A stretch of DNA of 64,000 nucleotides from a bacterium (GTDB lineage Bacteria > Bacillota_I > Bacilli_A > RFN20 > CAG-826), in assembly GCA_963611815.1 (NCBI GenBank), contig CAVDSY010000003.1:9178-73177 (forward strand). The letters are read 5' to 3'. Under the pieces are notes generated by a model, which was not told where the DNA came from, did not search any database, and saw only the letters and a list, made by a program, of their open reading frames with translations. Position numbers and translations under genes: made by a program. Positions within the stretch are counted from its first letter, which is position 1; each line of letters opens with the position of its first letter. This document shows, in pieces, positions 5,161 to 58,506 of the stretch.

Positions 5161-6132
5161 TTAGTTGCTTGCGCTTGTGCTTTTCACGACGGAGAGCTCG
5201 GTCAAGTCGCTGTAAAGAGGGTAACTTATATTGATCCCTGAGCTGCCACCGGCGTCATTCATTTGGTCGATGAAAGCATTAATTAGGCCGTTTGTTGTGC
5301 CGCTGTATGTTGTGTTTTTGCCGTCATCGTAATCAATCCATACATAGACGATGCAGGTTTTGTCGCTCGCCGCTGCGTATGTAAGGTCAAAGCTAATGGA
5401 AGCGTTTTTTGTGGTCTCAGTGGCGCCGTTAACGGTCTTCAGCGTTTTCACAAAATACTTTTGCTCTACATTCTTAAACTCATTTTTCAGCGTCTGGAAG
5501 TTGGTCTCAGAGCTGCCGCTATCCCAAGTATAGGTATGTTCGCCTCCCGTTACGGGTTCCACCATTGCCTTCACTGAGATAACGGAGGAAATGTAATTTG
5601 AGAGATCGTATTTTTGCCCAGAAGCGCCAGACGCGTCTTCACTTACTGACTCAGATGAAGAACTGTCGGTTGTCACTGTTTTGATAGCATGATCTTTATC
5701 CGTATTGTGCGTGATCGCTAAAGAAAGCTTGTTATCAGTGGTGGTGTATGTTCCGCCGCTGAGCTTGAGCTTCAATAAAATGGGGGTGTAGTCGTTGTCT
5801 TCTTGGAAGACCTGGTCATAACGCAGCAAAGAAAGATCCATCTTGCCTGTGTCATTGCCATTCGCATCTTTGATTGTTGGGTTTTCTGCGAATTCGTGGC
5901 TTCCGTTATCGTTCTGGATGTATTTGTAGACGGTCATGTCTACTGAGGCATTCTCGTCCGTTTTAACCTGGATCGCCATGCCGCTTGCGTCTACTTCTTT
6001 GTTGGATGCGAACCAAGAGAAAGTGGAGGATGTGCTGAACCAAGCAAACAACGATACCGCAAGCGTGCCCAAAGAAAGGAAATAGGCAACGCTTGCCAAG
6101 CGGAATCCTTTTCTTCTGAAGAGCTTGCTCAT
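5161..6132 (-). CDS. TasA/camelysin-like secreted protein with SipW-cognate-type signal peptide (locus 1)
   Basis: N-terminus K/R-rich, hydrophobic core, then SLFAWFSTSSTFSWFASNKEVDASGMAIQV, which parallels TFAFFSDKEVSNNTFAAGTL of camelysin and TWAAFNDIKSKDATFASGTL of TasA; paralog of 23918-24877. Confidence 0.55.
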   Translation of the reverse strand: MSKLFRRKGFRLASVAYFLSLGTLAVSLFAWFSTSSTFSWFASNKEVDASGMAIQVKTDENASVDMTVYKYIQNDNGSHEFAENPTIKDANGNDTGKMDLSLLRYDQVFQEDNDYTPILLKLKLSGGTYTTTDNKLSLAITHNTDKDHAIKTVTTDSSSSESVSEDASGASGQKYDLSNYISSVISVKAMVEPVTGGEHTYTWDSGSSETNFQTLKNEFKNVEQKYFVKTLKTVNGATETTKNASISFDLTYAAASDKTCIVYVWIDYDDGKNTTYSGTTNGLINAFIDQMNDAGGSSGINISYPLYSDLTELSVVKSTSASN

Positions 6133-6189
6133 GGGCTAATTCTACACCTGATACTTCGATTGAGCCTCTCGCATAGGAACAAAATACAG

Positions 6190-6330
6190 CCCCTGCTAGA
6201 AACCCTTTCGGGTTGGCAGCTGGCTGTCTTAGGAAGACCCTTTAGCTTTGCGTCGCCAGATTGCCCTGGCTTTGCTTTTGACGAGGGGAATTATAAGGGA
6301 TACGCGCGTACGCGCAAGGGCTAATTCTTT
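6190..6330 (-). promoter_or_regulatory. conserved structured leader (copy 1) plus relic of the giant-gene start codon region, upstream of the TasA-like gene
   Basis: nucleotide similarity to 28797-28900; hairpins GUCUU-CCUA-AAGAC and GCCAGG-GCAA-UCUGGC on the minus-strand RNA. Confidence 0.5.
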
Positions 6331-6656: not shown

Positions 6657-9214
6657 TTAGGCGCTCGAAGTCGTATCTTTAGGGGAATAGTCTTCTTTGC
6701 TGCCGGTGGCCGTTATGCCTGTTCCTGTTATGCTCGTTGTTCCGCCTGCGGTATCAACGTAATAGACCGTTATCGTTTCGTTTTCACCATCAACTGTTCT
6801 AACGCGGTAAAAATAGACTGTGGTAGGGTTGCCACTTATAGCGAAGGTTACTTTTGATGGGGTGTAATCGGATTCGGTGGTTATGTTGCCTTCGCTGTCC
6901 GTTGTTTCTTTCGTAGAGTTGATTGGCTTGATGGTTTTATCTGTAGTGTTGGAATAGTAGACGAAGTCGATGGGAGGAACTTCCTCTTCGCCCGTATCCT
7001 TTTTCCCGTCCGCTCCGTTGGCGCCGATATCGAAATACATGATGTAGGGGCAGTTGGTCGCGGAGGAATCCGCGCCGACGAAGTAATCTCCTGCGCTCAG
7101 AGGGATCTCCATGTAGTAGGCGCACCCATTTTTGAGAACGCCCTCCCCGCTCTTCCCACTGATTGGGTATATGGCGTTCAGGTCGAATATTTTCTCTGCG
7201 CCGTTAGGGATCGTCGCGGAGTCATCTGTGTATTGGTTGTAGTACTTGCCATCAAATTTGTAGATGGCGCTGATTTTCTTCGCGCTCTCGATTTGCTTCT
7301 TGTCCGTGGAACGGATAATTTCGTAAACGGAAGGCATGGCGTGCCCAGACGAGCTCGAGGCTGAGGTGTAAGTTCCGAGGATCATCTTCAGCGAGCCGGA
7401 ACTCGATAGTTCGAAGTTGAAGCCGGCTTTATACATCTCGTAGCCTGAATCGTAAGTGACACCGTTTATCTGTATATCACTGTAAGTCCCTTTTTCCAGG
7501 GCTCCGTAATTTTTAATGTCGTTAGAGCCGATTTTGTAGAGTTGGATTCCATCCAAACTGATTATGCCGCTGGCTAAGGTGTCGGGCTTGTTCTCACTCG
7601 AAATCATCTTCGCGAAATTGTGTTTAACCTTGTAGTAGCCATTCTCAATGTCACCGAAGCCGCAATCCGCGATGTCTTTGCTGTTTGAGGTCGTGCTCGT
7701 CGACCATGATTTGCCGCTGTTTTCCGTATCCGAGATGCGATAGGTGGCGTTTTCTAGATTGGTCGCCAGAGTGTCAATGTAGAAAAAAGAGAGGCTGTCG
7801 TATCCGAAAACTGGGTAAATTCCGGTGGCGTCTTTTGTCCTATCCGCTTCGGATATGGATGTAGCGCCTTTGTCTGATACGTATATCGAATAACGAATTC
7901 CGTTTTTTTAGTTTCGCTTGAACTATTCAAGTTCATCCCTTTGTTATAGAGACGCGGCGTTGCGTTGGATGATGAGATGGTGCCGTCGCCGCCTCTGCCG
8001 ACGAGATAGCCCGTATTGCTGTCTGAGACAGGCTCACCCGTATTGCTGCCTTTTGTGTAGTAGGTTCCGATGTCTTCAGTATCTATGTAAGAACTGGAGA
8101 TCGTCGCTTTATCCAAATCGATATTGAGTGGGAGGCAGGTTCCATTTTGCAAATTGACGCTTTGCCCGAGGTCCTTTGTTGTATCCCAGGTGAAAGGTGT
8201 GCTGTAGTAGTAAATGTTCGCCTTGAACCGCTCGGTCATATCGTATGCCTTCGTGGCTGATCCAGCCGTCATCCCTTTTGCCGCGGCTATGTAGGTGATT
8301 CGCTTGGCGAGGCTCGCGATGTCGATTGATCCGCCCCAGCTGCCGCTGGTGTCGCTGCCCGATCCTCCCGGCTTCCCTTTGTAGTCGAAGTGGTTTGAAT
8401 TATAAGCCCCGATCAAAGAGTGTTGGCTGAGCTTGTCGTTGTCAGCAAGTGCTCCACTGTTAATCACTGAAACATTCGCGTTTTGAAAATCGAAATAGCC
8501 TGATCTGACGCCACAATTGGTCAATTGGCCATTCGCATAGCCGGCGATTAGCCCGACGAGCGTTTGATCGGTATTGGTCTCGACGGTTAGATAGTCAAAG
8601 TAGAGGTCTTTTACTTCGTTTACTTCAACGGTGTAGCCTGTGACCTCGGCGTCGCTTTCGTATTCGCCGACGATGCCGAAGAAACCAACGATGGAGATGC
8701 TGCCTTTGACGTTGCTGTCAGCCCCGGAAGGCCAGCCGGTCTTTTTTAGATTGTCTTCGTTATTGCTGATCGTGAGGTTGCTTATTTTATAGCCCGCCCC
8801 ATTGAAGTTCCCTATGAAGGGGTATTTCGTGGTTCCTGCAGGAGGCAAATAATAACCGTCCGCGTCGATGTCGTTATTCAGTACGAAGTAGACCTGTTCG
8901 TAATCGCTGGTTTCGTTCCCGGAGGCGTCTTTTTTCTTTTTGTTGAAATACCCTGGGTCTTGCAGCCAGTTGAAATAGTAGAGCTGTTTTGGCGTTTCTA
9001 TTTGATATGCGGTTTCCGCGGTTTTCCCATCGCCTCCAGCGAAGTAGCTTCCGACGGCCGCTCCATCCACCCCATCCACTTTCTGAGTGGTCGTAGGTCT
9101 GATGAACCACGCGAGCGATGATACGCCCAAAGTGCAGCCGATGACGACGAAAGAGATCCCGAGGATCAGAATCGGTTTGTTGACGTTGCTGCGGCTTTTT
9201 TTCTCTTTCATGGG
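6657..9214 (-). pseudogene. giant GLUG-motif / beta-helix secreted protein (locus 1), reading frame broken by 1-nt shift at A7 tract (7903-7909); possibly phase-variable rather than dead
   Basis: ORFs 7754-9292 and 6657-7607 are N- and C-terminal parts of a paralog of the 1310-aa protein at 24882-28796. The frame of the second ORF stays open upstream to the A7 run, where the first frame leaves it. Start is MKEKKSRSNVNK at 9214. Confidence 0.55.
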
Positions 9215-23917: not shown

Positions 23918-24877
23918 CTATTCGGAAACCTTGATGGTGAGCTCGGTGATGTCGCTGCCCAAAGGATAACCCGCGTCGACCGTCGTCAGTTTGGACTTCA
24001 TCTGATCGATGTAGGCGTTGATGAGGCCATGCCCCTTAGCCCCGTTGTCGTAAATGCTTTGGCTGACGTCGTAATCCATCCAGACGTAGGCCGTGCAGGT
24101 TTTGATGCCTTTTTCCGAGAGGACTTCCTCATACGCCAGATTGGCGTCGTTAGAGAAGTCGAGGTCGCTTTTGCTGGCCGCCCCGGTTGAGGGGATGCTG
24201 CTCACGAAACGCTGCGCATTGTCCGCGAAAGAATTTCGCATCTCTTCGAAGTCCGCCTCCAGGGCCGAAGAGTCGCTAGACAAAGCGTTGATTTCCGCCT
24301 CGGAGAAGATGGTCTCGTCGTTATGGACCATCGCCTTTACCGAGACGACGGATGATAGATAGCTTGAAAGATGATAGGTGGCGTCATCGTCCGCGATCGA
24401 GAAATTGTCCGCGTCGCTTTCCTCCAGAGTCCAGCTGACTTCTTTGTCCTTGCTTGAATCGTGGAAAATCTTCAGGGGGAGGATGTCCCCATTTTTGTAA
24501 CTGCCCCCGTAGAGGCGAAGCTGGATGAGCAGAGGGGCGTAGTCGTTATCGTCGGTGAAGATCTGATCGTAACGCGTCAGCGAAAGCTCATCGGGGTCTC
24601 TTTGGACATGGTAGACGCCCGTTCCTTTCTTGCCGCTTTCCCCATCGTCTTCCTGCTCCTCGACGTAGCGGTAATAATGGGCCTCGATATCGACGTCGTC
24701 TTCGCCTTTTATTGATATGGACATGCCGCTAGCCTCGACCTCTTTGTTCGAGGCGAACCAAGAGAAGGTTGAGGAGGTGCTGAAATAGGCAAAAAGCGAG
24801 GTCACCAAAGCCCCTAGGGAAAGGAAATAGGCAAGCGATGCGGCTTTGAAGCTTTTCTTTCTTAACGTCTTGCTCAT
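23918..24877 (-). CDS. TasA/camelysin-like secreted protein with SipW-cognate-type signal peptide (locus 2)
   Basis: N-terminus MSKTLRKKSFKAASLAYFLSLGALVTSLFAYFSTSSTFSWFASNKEVEASGMSISI; paralog of 5161-6132; start 5 nt after the giant gene stop. Confidence 0.55.
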   Translation of the reverse strand: MSKTLRKKSFKAASLAYFLSLGALVTSLFAYFSTSSTFSWFASNKEVEASGMSISIKGEDDVDIEAHYYRYVEEQEDDGESGKKGTGVYHVQRDPDELSLTRYDQIFTDDNDYAPLLIQLRLYGGSYKNGDILPLKIFHDSSKDKEVSWTLEESDADNFSIADDDATYHLSSYLSSVVSVKAMVHNDETIFSEAEINALSSDSSALEADFEEMRNSFADNAQRFVSSIPSTGAASKSDLDFSNDANLAYEEVLSEKGIKTCTAYVWMDYDVSQSIYDNGAKGHGLINAYIDQMKSKLTTVDAGYPLGSDITELTIKVSE

Positions 24878-24881
24878 CTTC

Positions 24882-27800
24882 TCACTCCGTGGCCTCGATG
24901 GCGATTACTTGGCCTGCGCCCGTGACCGCGTTCCCGTTTATCGTGATGGAATAGTTTGAATCGCTTGGCGTGGAAATGATGGTCGCATTGCATTTCTCGC
25001 TGCAATGGACCGTGACCACGTAAGTTTTGTTGGTCGCGTCGTAAACGTATTCGACGCTCGCCTCGCCATTGTCTAAGCTGATTTTGAACTCGCCGAAAGT
25101 CTCTTCTCTTATTATCGTTTCAGGGCCCTGCCATTCGGAGGAGGCGGTCTCGCTTGCGGTCCCTGTGGCGGTTATGGTGAGGCTACCGTCGCTTTGCATG
25201 GTGACAAGCCCGCTAGAAGAGACCGCTCCCACGCTTTCGTCACCGCTTTTCCAAGTTGCTTCATTGGCGAGGAAATAAAGCTGGATCTCATCCCCTTTGC
25301 TCGCTCCGCTTATCGTCCAGGTGCAGGAGTAGGTGAGGTTGAGCGAGGTGTTGACGGGGTTGTATTTCTCGCTGGTCTCTCTTTCCATGATGACGATTAG
25401 AGGGGTGTCGCTTTTCTTCGGTAGGGCGGTGCCGGCGCTGTCTTTCACGCTCACGCCTTCTTTGGAATAGACCACTTTGACCCCGGAACTCAGGCTGGAG
25501 GTGAGGACGTTGCTTTCGTAGGAATAGTCGATTCCCTTAGAGGGCGCAAGTAAAAGAGCCACGCAGGCCGAGCCTCCTCCGCTGAGCGAAGGGAGATCTT
25601 TGAAGGAAGAGGTGAAGTCCACTCCTTTGGGGTAGTTTTGCTTGATGATGTTGGAGGTGGTCTTCTCTTTGATGGTGACCGCCTCGTAGTCCGCGGCCCC
25701 GGTGCCGATGTCTAGGTAAAGCAGATAAGCCCCCGATTTGCCGGAGACCGACCCAAGGGCGTATTCGCCGGCGTTGACGGGGATCTCGAAATAGTAGAGG
25801 CAGTTGCTAATTATGTCGCCGTCGGTGCTGGCGATCCAGCTGACGTCAAAGACAAGCTGGGAGGAGGAGCTGTTCGCTGGTACGCTGCCATCGTATGAAT
25901 AGAGATAGGGCTTCTCTTTCTTATCGTCGCCCAGATTCGCGTAGATTTTGCTGATCTGCTTGATTTCGGAGATGCTGTTGTTCTCGTCGCGGACGACCTC
26001 GTTGAGACTGAAGAAGCAGGTGTTGTTGGTGAAATACGATCCCCCGAAGAAATTGATGTAGCCTTCGGTGGCGAGATTGAAGTCGATGGAGTCTTCGGGG
26101 ACGTCGTAATTTGAATAGACCGAGCCGCTTTGTGTTGGTTTCTCATCAGTCTTGCCGTCGAGATACTCCTGCAGTTTATCTTGGTAAACCTTTTCGGCGG
26201 CCTTGTCGTAGACGATGGCCTTGCCGACCTGGCATAGGTGGTCGGTGGAGATCTGAGCGTTCATGAAGTGAAGGCCATAGAGAGCGGTGCTTGAGCTCAC
26301 GCTGCCGCTGAAGATGGTGCTCTCGAGGTTGTATCTCGCGCTGTCATAGCGCTTGAGCTTTGAGCTCTCAACGGTGGTGGATGGGATTGAGGAGCTTTTG
26401 CTAGCGGAGGAGTTGTAGTTGTCGATAACCCTTGACCAGCCCGAATCCGAATAGGCTCCGTCCTCCTCGATGCAGGAACGGGTCACCACCTGCAGATTTG
26501 AACTGTTGTATGCGCTGTAAAAAGAGGTGCTCAGGCTCGACATCTTGTATGCTTTTGAGACGCGGATGTCGCCCGCGTAGTCGCTTGAATCGATAAAATT
26601 CGCTCCCCCGACGAGATAGCCGGTGTTCATTTCCGAGACCCCGTTTATGCCGGTTTTGCTGTCCTCATCGCTGTAGCTGTAGGCCAAGGGGACGTAGGTG
26701 GGATTGACGTAATAAGCGGCGTTCCTTTCACTCGTGGAGGACTCCTTCACGCCGGTTTGTGAGGAGTCGGAGAATGAAAGACCGGTGCTGATGTCCCCTC
26801 CGGTGCCGACCTTAGCGATTGTGAAGCTGTGGGAGCTCGTGCTGGTATCGGCGGCGAAAGAAGACGAACCGTAATATAGGTAAACCGTGTAGCTGGTTAT
26901 TGTGCCTCTGAGATAGGCGCTCATGGTGCCCGTTCCAGTGCCGTCGCTTTGGGCACCAGACAAAGTGTAGCGACTGATTGCGGTGCTCCCGGTATTTGTG
27001 CTTGCGGACATGATAACGTTGAAAGTGTTGGAAAAGCCGCTTCTGGTTCTTTGCGCGCAAAGATAGAGCGTTGATGAAGTCAGGGGTCGGTAGCCGTTCG
27101 ATGACGAGTCATAGGCCCATTTGAATTCGTCGCCGCTTACGGAATCCGAAGAAGAGATCGTGCCGGAGCTGGAAGAGCCGATGTACTTCTTTGAATAGGT
27201 GTCCAAGATGGTTAGATAGGTTTCGCTTATCTCGTCTTGGACTAGCGTCCAGGCACTGGAGGTTTCATCGTAATCCAAGTAATAGGAATACGAATCGTCT
27301 GAAGAATAGATATTTCCCTTGTCTGCCTCGTAAGTCCAAGTGGTGGAGGCGCTGGAAGTCAGATAAAGGGAGTTCGATGAGCTTCTGCTGAGGTAATAGG
27401 CGGTTTCTCCGACGTAAGTGTAAATATAGCCGGACCCTCCGGCGCTTGGCATGTTCCAGCCGCAGGCGCCGGAAGAAGAGACGTCGATTAGCGTGCCATC
27501 TTCAGAGACCGAGAGGAAGTGGCCGGATTTTGAAATGGTAGGAAGATAGCCATAGACATTGCGCTTGACGCTCATCTTCTCCGAACTTGAAGTCGGCACT
27601 TCGTCAGGGGTGCCGTATATGAAAACGTAGGTGTCATCGTACGTTGATGATGTGGTGATGCCATAGGAGGCGAGCACCCCTCCATCTTCATCCTTTCTTT
27701 GGCCGTTCTTGAAATAGTATTGGGTTCCGCCGCTTTCGCTTCTGGTCGCTTTCGTCGAGGAATAGACGATGTCTTTCGGCTGGCTTTCGTTGCCGCTTGG

Positions 27801-28796
27801 GTCGACGTCGATGGTCTCTGAGGCGACGTAGTAGACATCGCTGGTGATGCTCGAGTCGCTTTGCTCGCTTTTGATGTCGTTGTACATCTGCTCCATGTCG
27901 ACCGATCCGCCCCAGTTGGTGGAACCGTGGCTTGTATTGGGGTTCTCAACCTGGGGCATGCTCATGGTCTCATCGCTGACAAGCGTTTTGGCGAGATAGC
28001 TATCGGTTGCGTAGCCGACGAGAGAATACTCGGAGACATGCTCGACCCCGGTGATGTCGGTGATTGGGGACGCCCCTGATTTGGTGGCGATCGATGAACC
28101 GTTGACGCCCACCCCTGAAAGGGTCCCGTTGACATAGCCCGCGGCGAGGCCAACCAAAGTGGAGGAGGAAGCGGAGACGATCGAAAGGGAGGATAGGCCG
28201 AGATTCTTGATCTCGTTGGCGGAAGTGTCGTAGTTATATCCGTTGACTTTGCTCTCGTCGCTTGTCGAGCCGACCACGCCGAAGAAACCGACGATCTCGG
28301 CTTGCTTCAGATTGCCCTCGCTGTCCTCTTCGGCGCGGGCGGGGACGTTGGTAAGCTCTGAATAGTCGTTAGTGATCGTGAGGTTGCTGATGGTGTGCCC
28401 GTTCCCGTCGAAGGAGCCGACGAAAGGATATTGCTCCGTCCCTGCGGGAGGAAGGGAATAGCCTTCCCCGTCGATGTCGCTGGTGAGTTTGAAATAGATT
28501 TGCTTTATTGCGGTCTTTCCGTCGTTTGGGTCGTTGAATATGCCGAGGTCCTGCAGCCAGTTGAAGTAATAGAGCTGGCGGGCGTTATCGATTTCGAATG
28601 GAGCTTCTTTGGAGCCGTCCCCTCCGTTGAAATAAGAGCCGCTGCCCTTGCCTCCTATCCCTCTTAATGCGGCGCTGGTCTGAGCTTTGGAGAGCCAAGC
28701 GAGGCTAGGGATGGCGACCAGTCCGGCGCACGACAAAAAAGCGAGCCCTAAGAAAAACGCCGCCTTCTTTTTCTTGTCTGCTAGAAAACCTTTCAT
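24882..28796 (-). CDS. giant (~1305 aa) secreted GLUG-motif / beta-helix protein with SipW-type N-terminal signal and long S/T/Y-rich low-complexity middle region
   Basis: N-terminus MKGFLADKKKKAAFFLGLAFLSCAGLVAIPSLAWLSKAQTS; the YPFVGSFDGNGHTISNLTITN and LVGLAAGYVNGTLSGVGV (GLUG-like) motifs; RBS AGGCGG; ORF track start 28814 is a TTG extension. Confidence 0.65.
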   Translation of the reverse strand: MKGFLADKKKKAAFFLGLAFLSCAGLVAIPSLAWLSKAQTSAALRGIGGKGSGSYFNGGDGSKEAPFEIDNARQLYYFNWLQDLGIFNDPNDGKTAIKQIYFKLTSDIDGEGYSLPPAGTEQYPFVGSFDGNGHTISNLTITNDYSELTNVPARAEEDSEGNLKQAEIVGFFGVVGSTSDESKVNGYNYDTSANEIKNLGLSSLSIVSASSSTLVGLAAGYVNGTLSGVGVNGSSIATKSGASPITDITGVEHVSEYSLVGYATDSYLAKTLVSDETMSMPQVENPNTSHGSTNWGGSVDMEQMYNDIKSEQSDSSITSDVYYVASETIDVDPSGNESQPKDIVYSSTKATRSESGGTQYYFKNGQRKDEDGGVLASYGITTSSTYDDTYVFIYGTPDEVPTSSSEKMSVKRNVYGYLPTISKSGHFLSVSEDGTLIDVSSSGACGWNMPSAGGSGYIYTYVGETAYYLSRSSSNSLYLTSSASTTWTYEADKGNIYSSDDSYSYYLDYDETSSAWTLVQDEISETYLTILDTYSKKYIGSSSSGTISSSDSVSGDEFKWAYDSSSNGYRPLTSSTLYLCAQRTRSGFSNTFNVIMSASTNTGSTAISRYTLSGAQSDGTGTGTMSAYLRGTITSYTVYLYYGSSSFAADTSTSSHSFTIAKVGTGGDISTGLSFSDSSQTGVKESSTSERNAAYYVNPTYVPLAYSYSDEDSKTGINGVSEMNTGYLVGGANFIDSSDYAGDIRVSKAYKMSSLSTSFYSAYNSSNLQVVTRSCIEEDGAYSDSGWSRVIDNYNSSASKSSSIPSTTVESSKLKRYDSARYNLESTIFSGSVSSSTALYGLHFMNAQISTDHLCQVGKAIVYDKAAEKVYQDKLQEYLDGKTDEKPTQSGSVYSNYDVPEDSIDFNLATEGYINFFGGSYFTNNTCFFSLNEVVRDENNSISEIKQISKIYANLGDDKKEKPYLYSYDGSVPANSSSSQLVFDVSWIASTDGDIISNCLYYFEIPVNAGEYALGSVSGKSGAYLLYLDIGTGAADYEAVTIKEKTTSNIIKQNYPKGVDFTSSFKDLPSLSGGGSACVALLLAPSKGIDYSYESNVLTSSLSSGVKVVYSKEGVSVKDSAGTALPKKSDTPLIVIMERETSEKYNPVNTSLNLTYSCTWTISGASKGDEIQLYFLANEATWKSGDESVGAVSSSGLVTMQSDGSLTITATGTASETASSEWQGPETIIREETFGEFKISLDNGEASVEYVYDATNKTYVVTVHCSEKCNATIISTPSDSNYSITINGNAVTGAGQVIAIEATE

Positions 28797-28900
28797 CAGC
28801 CGCCTTGTTGGCAACCGGCTGTCTCCAAGAGACCCATGGCTTTGCGTCGCTAGGTCGCCCTAGCTTTGCTTTTGTCGGGTTGATGATACGCGAAATGTGT
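28797..28900 (-). promoter_or_regulatory. conserved structured 5' leader of the giant gene (copy 2): hairpins GUCUC-UUG-GAGAC and GCUAGG-GCGA-CCUAGC (GNRA loop)
   Basis: aligns with 6190-6330 with compensatory base changes in both stems. Confidence 0.55.
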
Positions 28901-28989
28901 TCGCTTTCAATAGTCCTTTTGGAGGGTTGGGCGCTTGTGGAAGCGATCTTGCCGACGCGAAGGAAGCGGTCCTGAGTCTTAGCCAATCA

Positions 28990-29086
28990 TTGATTTTCAT
29001 TTAGAAAATGCAACTAAACCGCTTGATTTTCATTTAGAAAATGCAACTAAAACTTTGATTTTTCATTTAGAAAATGCAATATTCAA
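28990..29086. repeat. three tandem direct repeats (period 33 bp) each containing the palindrome ATTTTC-ATTTA-GAAAAT; putative operator array in the divergent promoter region
   Basis: TTGATTTTCATTTAGAAAATGCAACTAAA at 28990 and 29023 (identical) and a 1-nt variant at 29055. Confidence 0.8.
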
Positions 29087-29115
29087 TTTGCTTTTTAATG
29101 ATTGATGGAGGTTTT

Positions 29116-49289: not shown

Positions 49290-49424
49290 AGTCTTTTCCT
49301 CCTATTCAATATAAGTAAGACTTGTCTTTAGGAGGTAATGACGTCGGGAGCTTTGGTGCAAACAAGGAAGAAAAACGCAAAAGGAGAGCAGTTCTTTCGG
49401 CGATGTTTTCTTCTTTGTTTCCTT

Positions 49425-49502
49425 TCTTAGCTCGTAGTGCCTGACTTCATGGATCAAGCGTAGAGACTGCCGGACCATATCCCCGACATATACGACCTAT
49501 CG
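49425..49502 (-). promoter_or_regulatory. purine riboswitch (guanine type, C at the specificity position) in the 5' UTR of the purine permease gene; expression platform sequesters the SD
   Basis: Minus-strand RNA has P1 (AGGUCGUA), J1/2 (UAU), P2 (GUCGGG / UCCGGC) with L2 (GAUAUGG), J2/3 (AGUCUCUAC), P3 (GCUUGA / UCAGGC) with L3 (UCCAUGAAG), J3/1 (AC), and P1 3' strand (UACGAGCU). Anti-SD CCUCCU (49330-35) can pair with SD AGGAGG (49300-05). Confidence 0.55.
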
Positions 49503-49635
49503 ACGTTAAGTAACTATATATAAAGAAAACGGTTTGCAAACATGAAAGCGGTTTAACGCTAAATTATCTTCCTAGCCCCTTTTTTGCCTTTCTCCCTATG
49601 TTACAATAATCGGCTAGAAAGAAGGTACCCAATCC

Positions 49636-57811: not shown

Positions 57812-57902
57812 TCTAGAGTAGAGAAGTCGCGTTAAGTGCCTGAGGATGGGAGGTCGCCTCTGGACGAAGGAGCAATCCGCGGTGCCTTCTCGCTGCCGCT
57901 AT
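57812..57902 (+). promoter_or_regulatory. THF (tetrahydrofolate) riboswitch upstream of an ECF transporter S-component gene
   Basis: AGAGUAG...CGCGUUAAGUG...AUGGGAGGUCG...ACGAAGGAG...CGCGGUG...GCUGCCGCU matches the conserved blocks of the Eubacterium siraeum THF aptamer almost position for position. Confidence 0.6.
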
Positions 57903-57939
57903 AAAAAGCTTACCTCCCTGCCGTGGAAGGAATTTTGGC

Positions 57940-58506
57940 ATGGGGAAAAGAGATTCTTTGATTCGCCGCATGTGCGCTGACGGGATGCTTGTCGGCCTTT
58001 TTGTGGTCCTGACGCTAGTAAACGTCAAAATCGGTCCGATGGTGAGAATCAGCTTCGGCTCTTTGCCGGTGGTTTTCTCCGCTCTTCTCTTTGGACCAGT
58101 CGATGGCCTAATAGTTGCCGTGCTTGGCGAGTTCATCTGTCAAACGATTAATTACGGCTTCTCACTGACTACTCCTTTATGGATTCTGGTCCCGGGAATA
58201 AGGGCTTTGGTCATCGGTTTTGTTTCATCTCTTTTCAAAAAGAAAGGGATGGCCCTTGAAAGACATCCGCTTCCTTATTTCGCGACATTGGTCATCGCCG
58301 CTCTTTGTGTTACCGCGCTCAATACCCTTGTCTCTTTCTTGGACGCTTTGATCTTCGATTACTCATTCACCATCGTTTGGCTGACGACGCTTATCCGCCT
58401 TGGCATAAGCATAGCCACCTCGATTGCCATCGGCCTAGTTTGCATTCCCCTAACAAAATCAATCGGTTCATTGGTTTTCCCGGGTAGTAAAGACAAATAT
58501 CATTAA
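57940..58506 (+). CDS. folT: ECF transporter S component (folate-family, FolT-like)
   Basis: 188 aa, 5-6 TM; follows a THF riboswitch. Confidence 0.55.
   Translation: MGKRDSLIRRMCADGMLVGLFVVLTLVNVKIGPMVRISFGSLPVVFSALLFGPVDGLIVAVLGEFICQTINYGFSLTTPLWILVPGIRALVIGFVSSLFKKKGMALERHPLPYFATLVIAALCVTALNTLVSFLDALIFDYSFTIVWLTTLIRLGISIATSIAIGLVCIPLTKSIGSLVFPGSKDKYH

Follow-up and report, generated by a model that had tools for sequence, protein, structure and literature searches.

Two c-di-GMP class I riboswitch aptamers, with different predicted expression platforms, precede genes for unannotated proteins in an uncultured gut Firmicute

The 64,000-nucleotide (nt) stretch analysed here, called the window below (contig CAVDSY010000003.1 of assembly GCA_963611815.1, positions 9,178 to 73,177), comes from a bacterium of the CAG-826 lineage. 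It carries two similar leader segments on its minus strand, one upstream of a gene for a protein of 323 amino acids (aa), the other upstream of a "giant" gene for a 1304-aa protein. Both are aptamers of the class I riboswitch for c-di-GMP (cyclic diguanosine monophosphate), also known as GEMM-I. When the whole window was scanned against the 4227 Rfam families at their curated gathering scores, c-di-GMP-I (RF01051, gathering score 35) matched at precisely these two sites, on the minus strand and over its full length: copy 1 at 6286-6212 with 58.1 bits (E = 9e-9), and copy 2 at 28880-28807 with 57.4 bits (E = 1.3e-8). Since both matches to this known class are above threshold, the segments are neither a new type of leader nor an analogue of the EAR element of Bacillales. 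Our own covariance model R1 gives 98.5 bits for copy 1 and 91.5 bits for copy 2, and finds no aptamers in the window and 14 loci beyond the Rfam matches. We are rather confident of the full reading, in which copy 1 acts as a termination-based ON switch, copy 2 as a translational ON switch, and c-di-GMP is most likely the ligand.

An earlier sequence-only reading had described two hairpins maintained by covarying changes, and both exist. GCCAGG-GCAA-UCUGGC in copy 1 (6255-6270) and GCUAGG-GCGA-CCUAGC in copy 2 correspond to the helix P2 with its GNRA tetraloop, and GUCUU/AAGAC versus GUCUC/GAGAC to the tip of P3. In copy 1, P3 spans 6218-6247 (AGCU...AGCU, GG...CC, tip GUCUU-CCU-AAGAC). The shared strings ctttgcgtcgc and ctttgcttttg correspond, as reverse complements, to the junctions GACGCAAAG and CAAAAGCAAAG, which form the ligand pocket. 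The pairwise alignment of the two loci, which had been proposed as a check, shows 58 identical positions among 75 aligned columns (77%) for the minus-strand cores 6286-6212 and 28880-28807. Eight differing positions fall within helices, pairing is kept at each of them, and no pair is broken. Three pair changes are fully compensatory: C-G to U-A in P2, U-A to C-G at the tip of the second hairpin, both already seen before, and a third at the base of the second hairpin (U-A/C-G; AGCU/AGCU in copy 1 versus AGCC/GGUU in copy 2) that the alignment adds. Two further changes exchange G-C and G-U. Past each core lies the 17-mer GAAAGG(G/T)TTTCTAGCAG (6209-6193 and 28794-28778), with two matches in the window against 0.03 expected. 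Elsewhere, similarity ends: the flanks of the similar blocks (114 nt upstream, 92 nt downstream) are no more alike than shuffled sequence, so that 6330-6287, the promoter part, has no counterpart at locus 2. The claim that the two segments align over most of their length thus holds for the aptamer cores and the 17-mer, and fails for this part.

The fold is conserved in related bacteria. Among 13 distinct loci homologous to the 323-aa gene, drawn from genome bins and metagenome assemblies and labelled here by L numbers, every one has an RF01051 match of 50-60 bits about 85 nt upstream of the 323-aa homologue; we call this leader class A. Giant-gene homologues with the second kind of leader, class B, occur in L004, L006, L019 and L020. 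In L004 and L006, both leaders stand in series, in the order class B, giant gene, class A, small gene. Altogether, in 18 loci the aptamer always precedes members of the same two gene families and shares their orientation. For the 18 distinct aptamers, standard pairs fill 95.9% of the pair cells, compared with 21-43% in controls with slid partners. Six pairs are changed on both sides, and the covariation score is reached by none of 500 shuffles. P2 alone is 97% paired, with compensatory changes at three of its six pairs and the loops GCAA, GCGA or GUGA, all of the GNRA type. The suggestion of a functional, structured cis-regulatory leader RNA for the downstream module is borne out by this maintained covariation, and homologues with structure-preserving variation, for which a covariance-model search had been advised, exist in the form of these 18 copies. 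Outside the collection, a protein-based scan of the JGI metagenomes for related loci found none, and a DNA-pattern scan of the same metagenomes found a single related riboswitch, L022, that differs in its terminator and downstream gene. At L022:60-180 (minus strand), an aptamer with A at position 20 (see below) directly follows a TATAAT box and precedes a different signal-peptide protein; its terminator is simpler, with AGCCAGCU/AGCUGGCU followed by UUUUU.

The class A leader of copy 1 begins with a putative promoter at 6290-6317, consisting of a -35 element TTGCGC (6317-6312), a 16-nt spacer and the -10 element TATAAT (6295-6290). The arrangement of -35 element, GC palindrome and TATAAT has the same spacing in all class A loci and ends 3 nt before the Rfam match. 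A consensus scan does not report it, because the -35 element agrees with the consensus at three of six positions only. Judged from this promoter, transcription of copy 1 would start at about 6283-6282, 3-4 nt before the ligand pocket. Both aptamers would open their own transcripts, and each lies on the strand of the gene that it controls. We considered a P1 helix formed by the 5' pentamer C(C/U)UCG with CG(A/C)(A/G)GG in the terminator tip. The pairings CUUCG/CGAAG, CCUCG/CGAGG and CCCG/CGGG are suggestive, but the pattern is inconsistent and the conserved -10 box places the transcription start inside the 5' strand, and the helix was therefore not adopted. The palindrome in the promoter spacer, GCGCGTACGCGC at 6304-6315, is perfect over 12 nt. 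A 12-nt palindrome, alternating GC in other loci, is present in every class A promoter spacer, L001-L015 included, and may be an operator for a repressor that acts on top of the riboswitch.

Downstream of the promoter, aptamer and predicted intrinsic terminator of copy 1 compete for the same RNA. The terminator (6178-6227) is built from ACAGCC/GGCUGU, CUGC/GCAG and AACCC-GAAA-GGGUU, and is followed by AUUUUGUU; it has a G+C-rich stem with a U run directly after it, is conserved, and overlaps the aptamer. The nucleotides of its 5' arm (6227-6216) are those of the P3 3' strand and the equivalent of the ligand-contacting C92, and the two structures are therefore mutually exclusive. Folding without constraint puts the terminator into the minimum-energy structure of all 13 class A leaders, always by way of the P3 3' strand. 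Enforcing the aptamer costs about 0.7-12 kcal/mol in 12 of them, and next to nothing in L013, where both folds are about equal. Across the class A alignment, terminator cells are 92% paired, compared with 26-46% when slid. The terminators of L011, L013 and L022 have other sequences, yet they pair with the same aptamer strand. Without ligand, 6227-6216 would pair with 6196-6186 to form the terminator 6227-6178, and the transcript would stop before the 323-aa gene. With ligand, the P3 strand would be held in the aptamer, no terminator would form, and the gene would be transcribed. Copy 1 is thus most likely a transcriptional ON switch, by analogy with the ON switch for cyclic GMP-AMP (cGAMP) upstream of pilM, which has the same arrangement (PMC9262584).

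An additional translational layer in class A was also considered. Class A leaders carry a conserved GUAGAAUUA 5-7 nt before the ATG (11 nt in L013). Enforcing the aptamer did not consistently alter how accessible the 22 nt upstream of the ATG are, and the idea was dropped. GGGUUUCUAG occurs twice in class A leaders, once in the terminator and once just before GUAGAAUUA and the ATG (L005:9918-10000; 6205-6135 in the window). A central GCUAG(A/G)A element (e.g. GCUAGAA) can pair with one copy or, alternatively, with the other. With the aptamer enforced, the 3' arm of the terminator pairs with the central GCUAGAA element; start codon accessibility showed no consistent effect.

The class B leader of copy 2 (aptamer 28807-28880) is organized differently downstream of the aptamer. 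A promoter-like site at 28883-28910 (TTGAAA, 16 nt, TATCAT) has 10 of 12 consensus matches, and the four remaining class B leaders have -10-like hexamers equally far from the aptamer. Transcription of copy 2 is predicted to start at about 28876. Between the end of the aptamer and the giant-gene ATG lie 10 nt (10-18 nt among class B leaders), and copy 2 has no terminator. Instead, minimum-energy folds contain a hairpin, CGGUUGCC-AACAA-GGCGGCUG (28797-28817), that joins the aptamer's 3' strand to a Shine-Dalgarno-like AAGGCGG and runs up to the ATG; we propose it as a translational expression platform. Complementarity just 5' of the ATG is also present in L004, L006 and L019, with differing sequences (CAGCCG/CGGCUG, AUCGCC/GGCGAU, CAGC/GCUG, UGGCUGCC/GGGAGCCA). 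Ligand binding would free the ribosome-binding site and switch on translation, including that of a 319-aa gene that starts 4 nt after the giant gene. This 319-aa gene (23918-24877, minus strand) is a paralogue of the 323-aa gene. It has no riboswitch of its own, and in view of the short gap it is presumably co-transcribed under copy 2. The folds suggest that class B is a translational ON switch.

Several observations weigh against parts of this reading. With respect to the family, c-di-GMP-I-UAU (RF03168) scores level with or above RF01051 at the E-value threshold (63.5 bits for copy 2, 55.0 bits for copy 1), although both values stay below its gathering score of 65.9. Where the UAU consensus has its two U columns, preceding GCAAA and within UGUC, the window sequences have A and C. 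With respect to the fold, P3 falls about 11 nt short of the Rfam consensus and has no conserved receptor motif of the kind that serves P2-P3 docking in type 1 GEMM RNAs. A P1 helix would be impossible if the promoter assignment holds. Either deviation could lower the affinity for the ligand. Position 20 is A instead of the canonical G. Compensatory changes are absent from the terminator, as the aptamer fixes one of its arms, the 5' one; the terminator is thus supported by conservation together with alternative designs, not by covariation. For class B, L020 lacks complementarity between the aptamer strand and the ATG region, and the predicted accessibility of the ribosome-binding region of copy 2 changes little, from 0.38 to 0.46. 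The translational mechanism is less secure than the class A mechanism on account of this small computed gain.

The residue at position 20 bears on the ligand. From the Rfam alignments and the numbering of the Vibrio cholerae aptamer Vc2, we take A6276 and A28870 to be the equivalents of position 20, and A6249 and C6216 those of A47 and C92. In c-di-GMP riboswitches, G at position 20 pairs with one guanine of c-di-GMP, and A47 and C92 are ligand contacts. The A47 and C92 equivalents are invariant in the 18 aptamers. At position 20, the window copies both have A; in the set of 18, 16 have A and two have G, namely L014:9948-10022 (class A) and L006:2249-2323 (class B). Apart from this residue, the two G20 copies are near-identical to their A20 orthologues and control the same genes. 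A at position 20 defines the cGAMP-binding GEMM-Ib riboswitches (PMC6140456, PMC6456294), and the substitution G20A makes Vc2 bispecific (PMC6140456). A20 RNAs nevertheless still bind c-di-GMP with nanomolar Kd (PMC6140456), and for this reason A20 affects the ligand assignment, not the membership in the fold family. Since G20 orthologues exist, every copy should be able to sense c-di-GMP, which is therefore the most likely ligand as predicted from sequence; A20 instead of G20 means that 3',3'-cGAMP could also be bound.

It could thus be argued that the two RNAs are sensors of the GEMM-Ib type, with 3',3'-cGAMP, or cGAMP and c-di-GMP together, as the physiological ligand and the same expression platforms as described above. 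The prevalence of A20 in both window copies and 16 of the 18 homologues fits this view, as does the fact that A20 defines GEMM-Ib, that G20A Vc2 and the clostridial A20 riboswitch Cbe 1-2 are bispecific (PMC6140456), and that A20G shifts a Geobacter riboswitch from cGAMP to c-di-GMP (PMC6456294). However, Cbe 1-2 binds c-di-GMP more tightly than cGAMP (30 nM versus 463 nM; PMC6140456), and strict cGAMP sensing is hard to reconcile with two orthologous G20 copies on the same genes. A motif scan of the 64-kb window detected no cGAMP synthase, nor any GGDEF, EAL or HD-GYP gene. No such synthase is known for this uncultured lineage either. In our judgement, the GEMM-Ib explanation is unlikely, though it should be kept in mind. 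A bolder version, in which compact, apparently P1-less A20 RNAs sense cGAMP or integrate both signals and drive an undescribed extracellular fibre or adhesin system made of the 323-aa family and the giant proteins, strikes us as quite unlikely; were it true, riboswitch signalling by cGAMP would reach beyond Geobacter-like bacteria, and a new family of matrix proteins would be indicated. Explanations outside the riboswitch class fare worse. The sequence-only reading had seen in the element a possible counterpart of EAR, that is, a protein-dependent or processive antiterminator, and the position in the 5' leader of a putative matrix or surface module and the conserved structure would suit such a role. 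But the full-length match to a known ligand-binding aptamer already accounts for the conservation, at E <= 1 the leaders match no Rfam family except those of the c-di-GMP-I clan, the EAR covariance model has no match in the window at gathering scores, and the adjacent terminator or ribosome-binding hairpin makes a complete local switch. We therefore abandon the EAR-like role as very improbable. The suspicion that the element is an incidental repeat, or a pair of plus-strand terminators with no function on the minus strand, derives from a consensus scan in which, at both loci, the P2 hairpin in reverse complement with TTTGCTTTTG after it is reported as terminator-like on the plus strand. It is practically negligible, as the aptamer model matches the minus strand in full, the element keeps its place and orientation relative to the same two gene families in 18 loci, and neither intergenic leader contains a plus-strand open reading frame (ORF) of at least 80 aa, those nearby overlapping minus-strand genes.

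A separate question concerns the sequence between the copy 1 aptamer and its gene. ccgaaagggtttctagcagg at 6211-6192 had been correctly placed 60 nt before the ATG at 6132, and had been taken for a degenerate copy of the giant-gene start. In this scenario, locus 1 derives from a unit of leader, giant gene and tasA-like gene from which the body of the giant gene was deleted, so that 6211-6192 would be a decaying remnant. The match of the 17-mer at 6209-6193 to giant-gene codons 1-7 (GAAAGGTTTTCTAGCAG, 28778-28794, minus strand) is indeed real and far above chance, and recombination between two 77%-identical aptamers on either side of a giant gene would yield such a fusion. By eye, the L004 giant-gene start also agrees with the class A core at 12 of 17 positions, with a local score of 6-8 that is within about two standard deviations of shuffles. 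Nevertheless, the supposed relic is made up of the apical hairpin and the inner 3' arm of the class A terminator, whose core agrees with the 17-mer inside giant-gene codons 1-7 at 16 of 17 positions. The segment is the best conserved part of the expression platform, near-invariant in 11 of the 13 class A leaders, while the small proteins of these loci are only about 45-55% identical; it is thus a conserved terminator core and not degenerate. Moreover, in L004, L006 and L011 an intact giant gene is found upstream of a class A leader with ccgaaagggtttctagcagg, and at locus 1 a giant-gene paralogue is still immediately upstream. Giant-gene starts vary (MKGFLADKKKK, MKRLFEDKKKR, MKRIVRDKKKA, MKLSEIMKDKKRK, MSDTRLTKRKK), and the 17-mer is found at the start of the window version and its near-identical copy L018 only. 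It is missing from the other four class B leaders, which does not favour copying from the giant gene into locus 1. In local alignments with class A leaders, the 17-mer of the window class B leader scores 15-16 (shuffles 6 +/- 1), and the other four are at chance. The remainder of the post-aptamer region of the window class B leader is orthologous to that of L004 (28 versus 7.6 +/- 1.6). In view of the class A conservation, the arrangement in L004, L006 and L011, and the four giant-gene starts without the motif, a recent deletion is not supported, and we regard the scenario as improbable. The 17-mer belongs to class A, and its presence in the giant-gene start most likely goes back to an exchange of sequence between the leaders of this lineage; it may alternatively reflect older, deep shared ancestry.

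Known systems offer several points of comparison. The window RNAs share with Vc2 the full-length, above-threshold match, P2 with a GNRA loop, P3, the GCAAA and GACGCAAAG junctions, and A47 and C92, and like other c-di-GMP-I riboswitches they are 5' leaders upstream of genes of the surface or "environment-membrane-motility" type. They differ from Vc2 in A20 instead of G, in the P3 that is shorter by about 11 nt and has no conserved tetraloop receptor, and in that the predicted transcription start leaves no room for P1. A at position 20 is shared with GEMM-Ib riboswitches, such as Geobacter Gs1761 and pilM (Gmet_0970), and with Cbe 1-2 of Clostridium beijerinckii. The pilM switch also has the ON logic proposed for class A, its terminator excluding the aptamer and sequestering the ligand-pairing C, as experimentally established (PMC9262584). 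Unlike the Geobacter riboswitches, those described here are found in an uncultured gut Firmicute, and G20 is present in two of the orthologous copies. In Firmicutes, riboswitches of this kind are already established as regulators of large surface or adhesin genes, with the ligand raising expression: in Bacillus thuringiensis, Bc2 lies upstream of the collagen adhesion protein gene cap (PMC4933901), and Clostridioides difficile has multiple c-di-GMP riboswitches, including ones upstream of adhesin and pilus genes (PMC6200980). As in these systems, a riboswitch precedes a large secreted or surface protein gene in the window. In contrast to them, the regulated proteins belong to small unannotated families, and a transcriptional and an apparently translational platform serve paralogous modules of one genome. 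The scaffold with a short P3 resembles c-di-GMP-I-UAU, which gives bit scores comparable to those of RF01051, but the RF03168 scores are sub-threshold and the two diagnostic U residues are absent. EAR is likewise a leader or intra-operon RNA tied to biofilm-matrix genes, but it is a processive antitermination element with no known small-molecule ligand, whereas in the window a local terminator can explain the switch and the matching models all belong to the c-di-GMP-I clan.

The regulated genes code for proteins without annotation. The 323-aa protein (5161-6132, minus strand) has an N-terminal hydrophobic helix and a beta-sandwich body, and belongs to a family with only 26 clusters among 5.8 billion. 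It is 43% identical to the 319-aa paralogue. Neither protein has a Pfam or NCBIfam family, a PDB sequence relative, or a significant Foldseek match. The earlier description of the 323-aa protein as TasA-like did not survive these searches: Peptidase_M73, the TasA/camelysin family, was not matched by the window proteins or by any of 27 family members (E <= 1), the family profile has no sequence match in the PDB, and the fold search did not support similarity to solved TasA. Within the family, the first approximately 45 residues (MSKLFRRKGFRLASVAYFLSLGTLAVSLFAWFSTSSTFSWFASNK; 5998-6132, minus strand) are almost invariant, with the near-invariant segment RKGFRLASVAYFLSLGTLA..FSTSSTFSWF, and the remainder is about 45% identical. 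Ahead of the hydrophobic helix, an RKG-F motif looks like a prepilin-type cleavage site but lacks the Glu at +5. The giant protein (24882-28796, minus strand) carries a membrane or signal segment at its N terminus and a single Big_2 domain close to the C terminus. Its start at ATG 28796 is backed by the conserved N terminus MK....DKKK in homologues, and giant proteins have in common a ...PSLAW(L/F) motif after a hydrophobic segment.

On binding the second messenger, the two copies are predicted to turn on, most likely, the expression of secreted or surface proteins. A likely regulatory input, the second messenger of biofilm formation and sessility, can now be assigned to two unannotated protein families that are found only in uncultured gut bacteria known from metagenome assemblies, which suggests that these proteins are surface or matrix components made at high c-di-GMP. 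The findings leave the understanding of how this riboswitch class works unchanged, and what is new is modest: the regulated families, the pairing of two platforms in one genome, the compact and apparently P1-less form, and the polymorphism at position 20. The window provides a natural example of one aptamer with two different expression platforms in paralogous modules, and the A20/G20 difference among orthologous riboswitches should be useful for the study of ligand selectivity.

The paralogue upstream of copy 1 (6657-9211, minus strand, about 850 aa) was delineated by tblastn with 820-852-aa homologues. It is homologous from end to end to these single proteins on other contigs, but its reading frame changes near 7940-7907, which indicates either a pseudogene with a frameshift or an error in the assembly. 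Neither Rfam nor our own covariance model detects a riboswitch before giant-gene paralogues of about 830-850 aa. A distant homologue of the N-terminal region of the giant gene at L021:1855-4107 also has no riboswitch; the gene row of L021 includes a 750-aa EAL-domain protein of the c-di-GMP phosphodiesterase family.

Both modules are surrounded by AAA_14/DUF4143 ATPase genes. Related loci (L007-L017) also contain SMC_N/AAA_15, AAA_21 and HipA_C-like genes, and these surroundings suggest a variable genomic region. Between the class B promoter and a divergent AAA_14/DUF4143 ATPase gene, about three tandem copies of a 33-bp unit (TTGATTTTCATTTAGAAAATGCAACTAAAACC, 93% matches) occupy 28990-29096. 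Each of them contains CATTT..AAATG, and they could be repeated binding sites. The window as a whole is chromosomal, with pflB, guaA, recN and rarA and a G+C content of 50%. The nearest named relatives of its GuaA are entries of 'MAG: Bacilli bacterium' with 67-73% identity, in keeping with an uncultured gut Firmicute. Two riboswitches of other classes are also present. A purine riboswitch (RF00167, 59.7 bits; 49415-49515, minus strand) lies upstream of a 517-aa ORF (49289-47736) with no NCBIfam match at 1e-5, and a tetrahydrofolate (THF) riboswitch (RF01831, 64.8 bits; 57812-57903, plus strand) lies immediately upstream of a 188-aa ORF (57940-58506).

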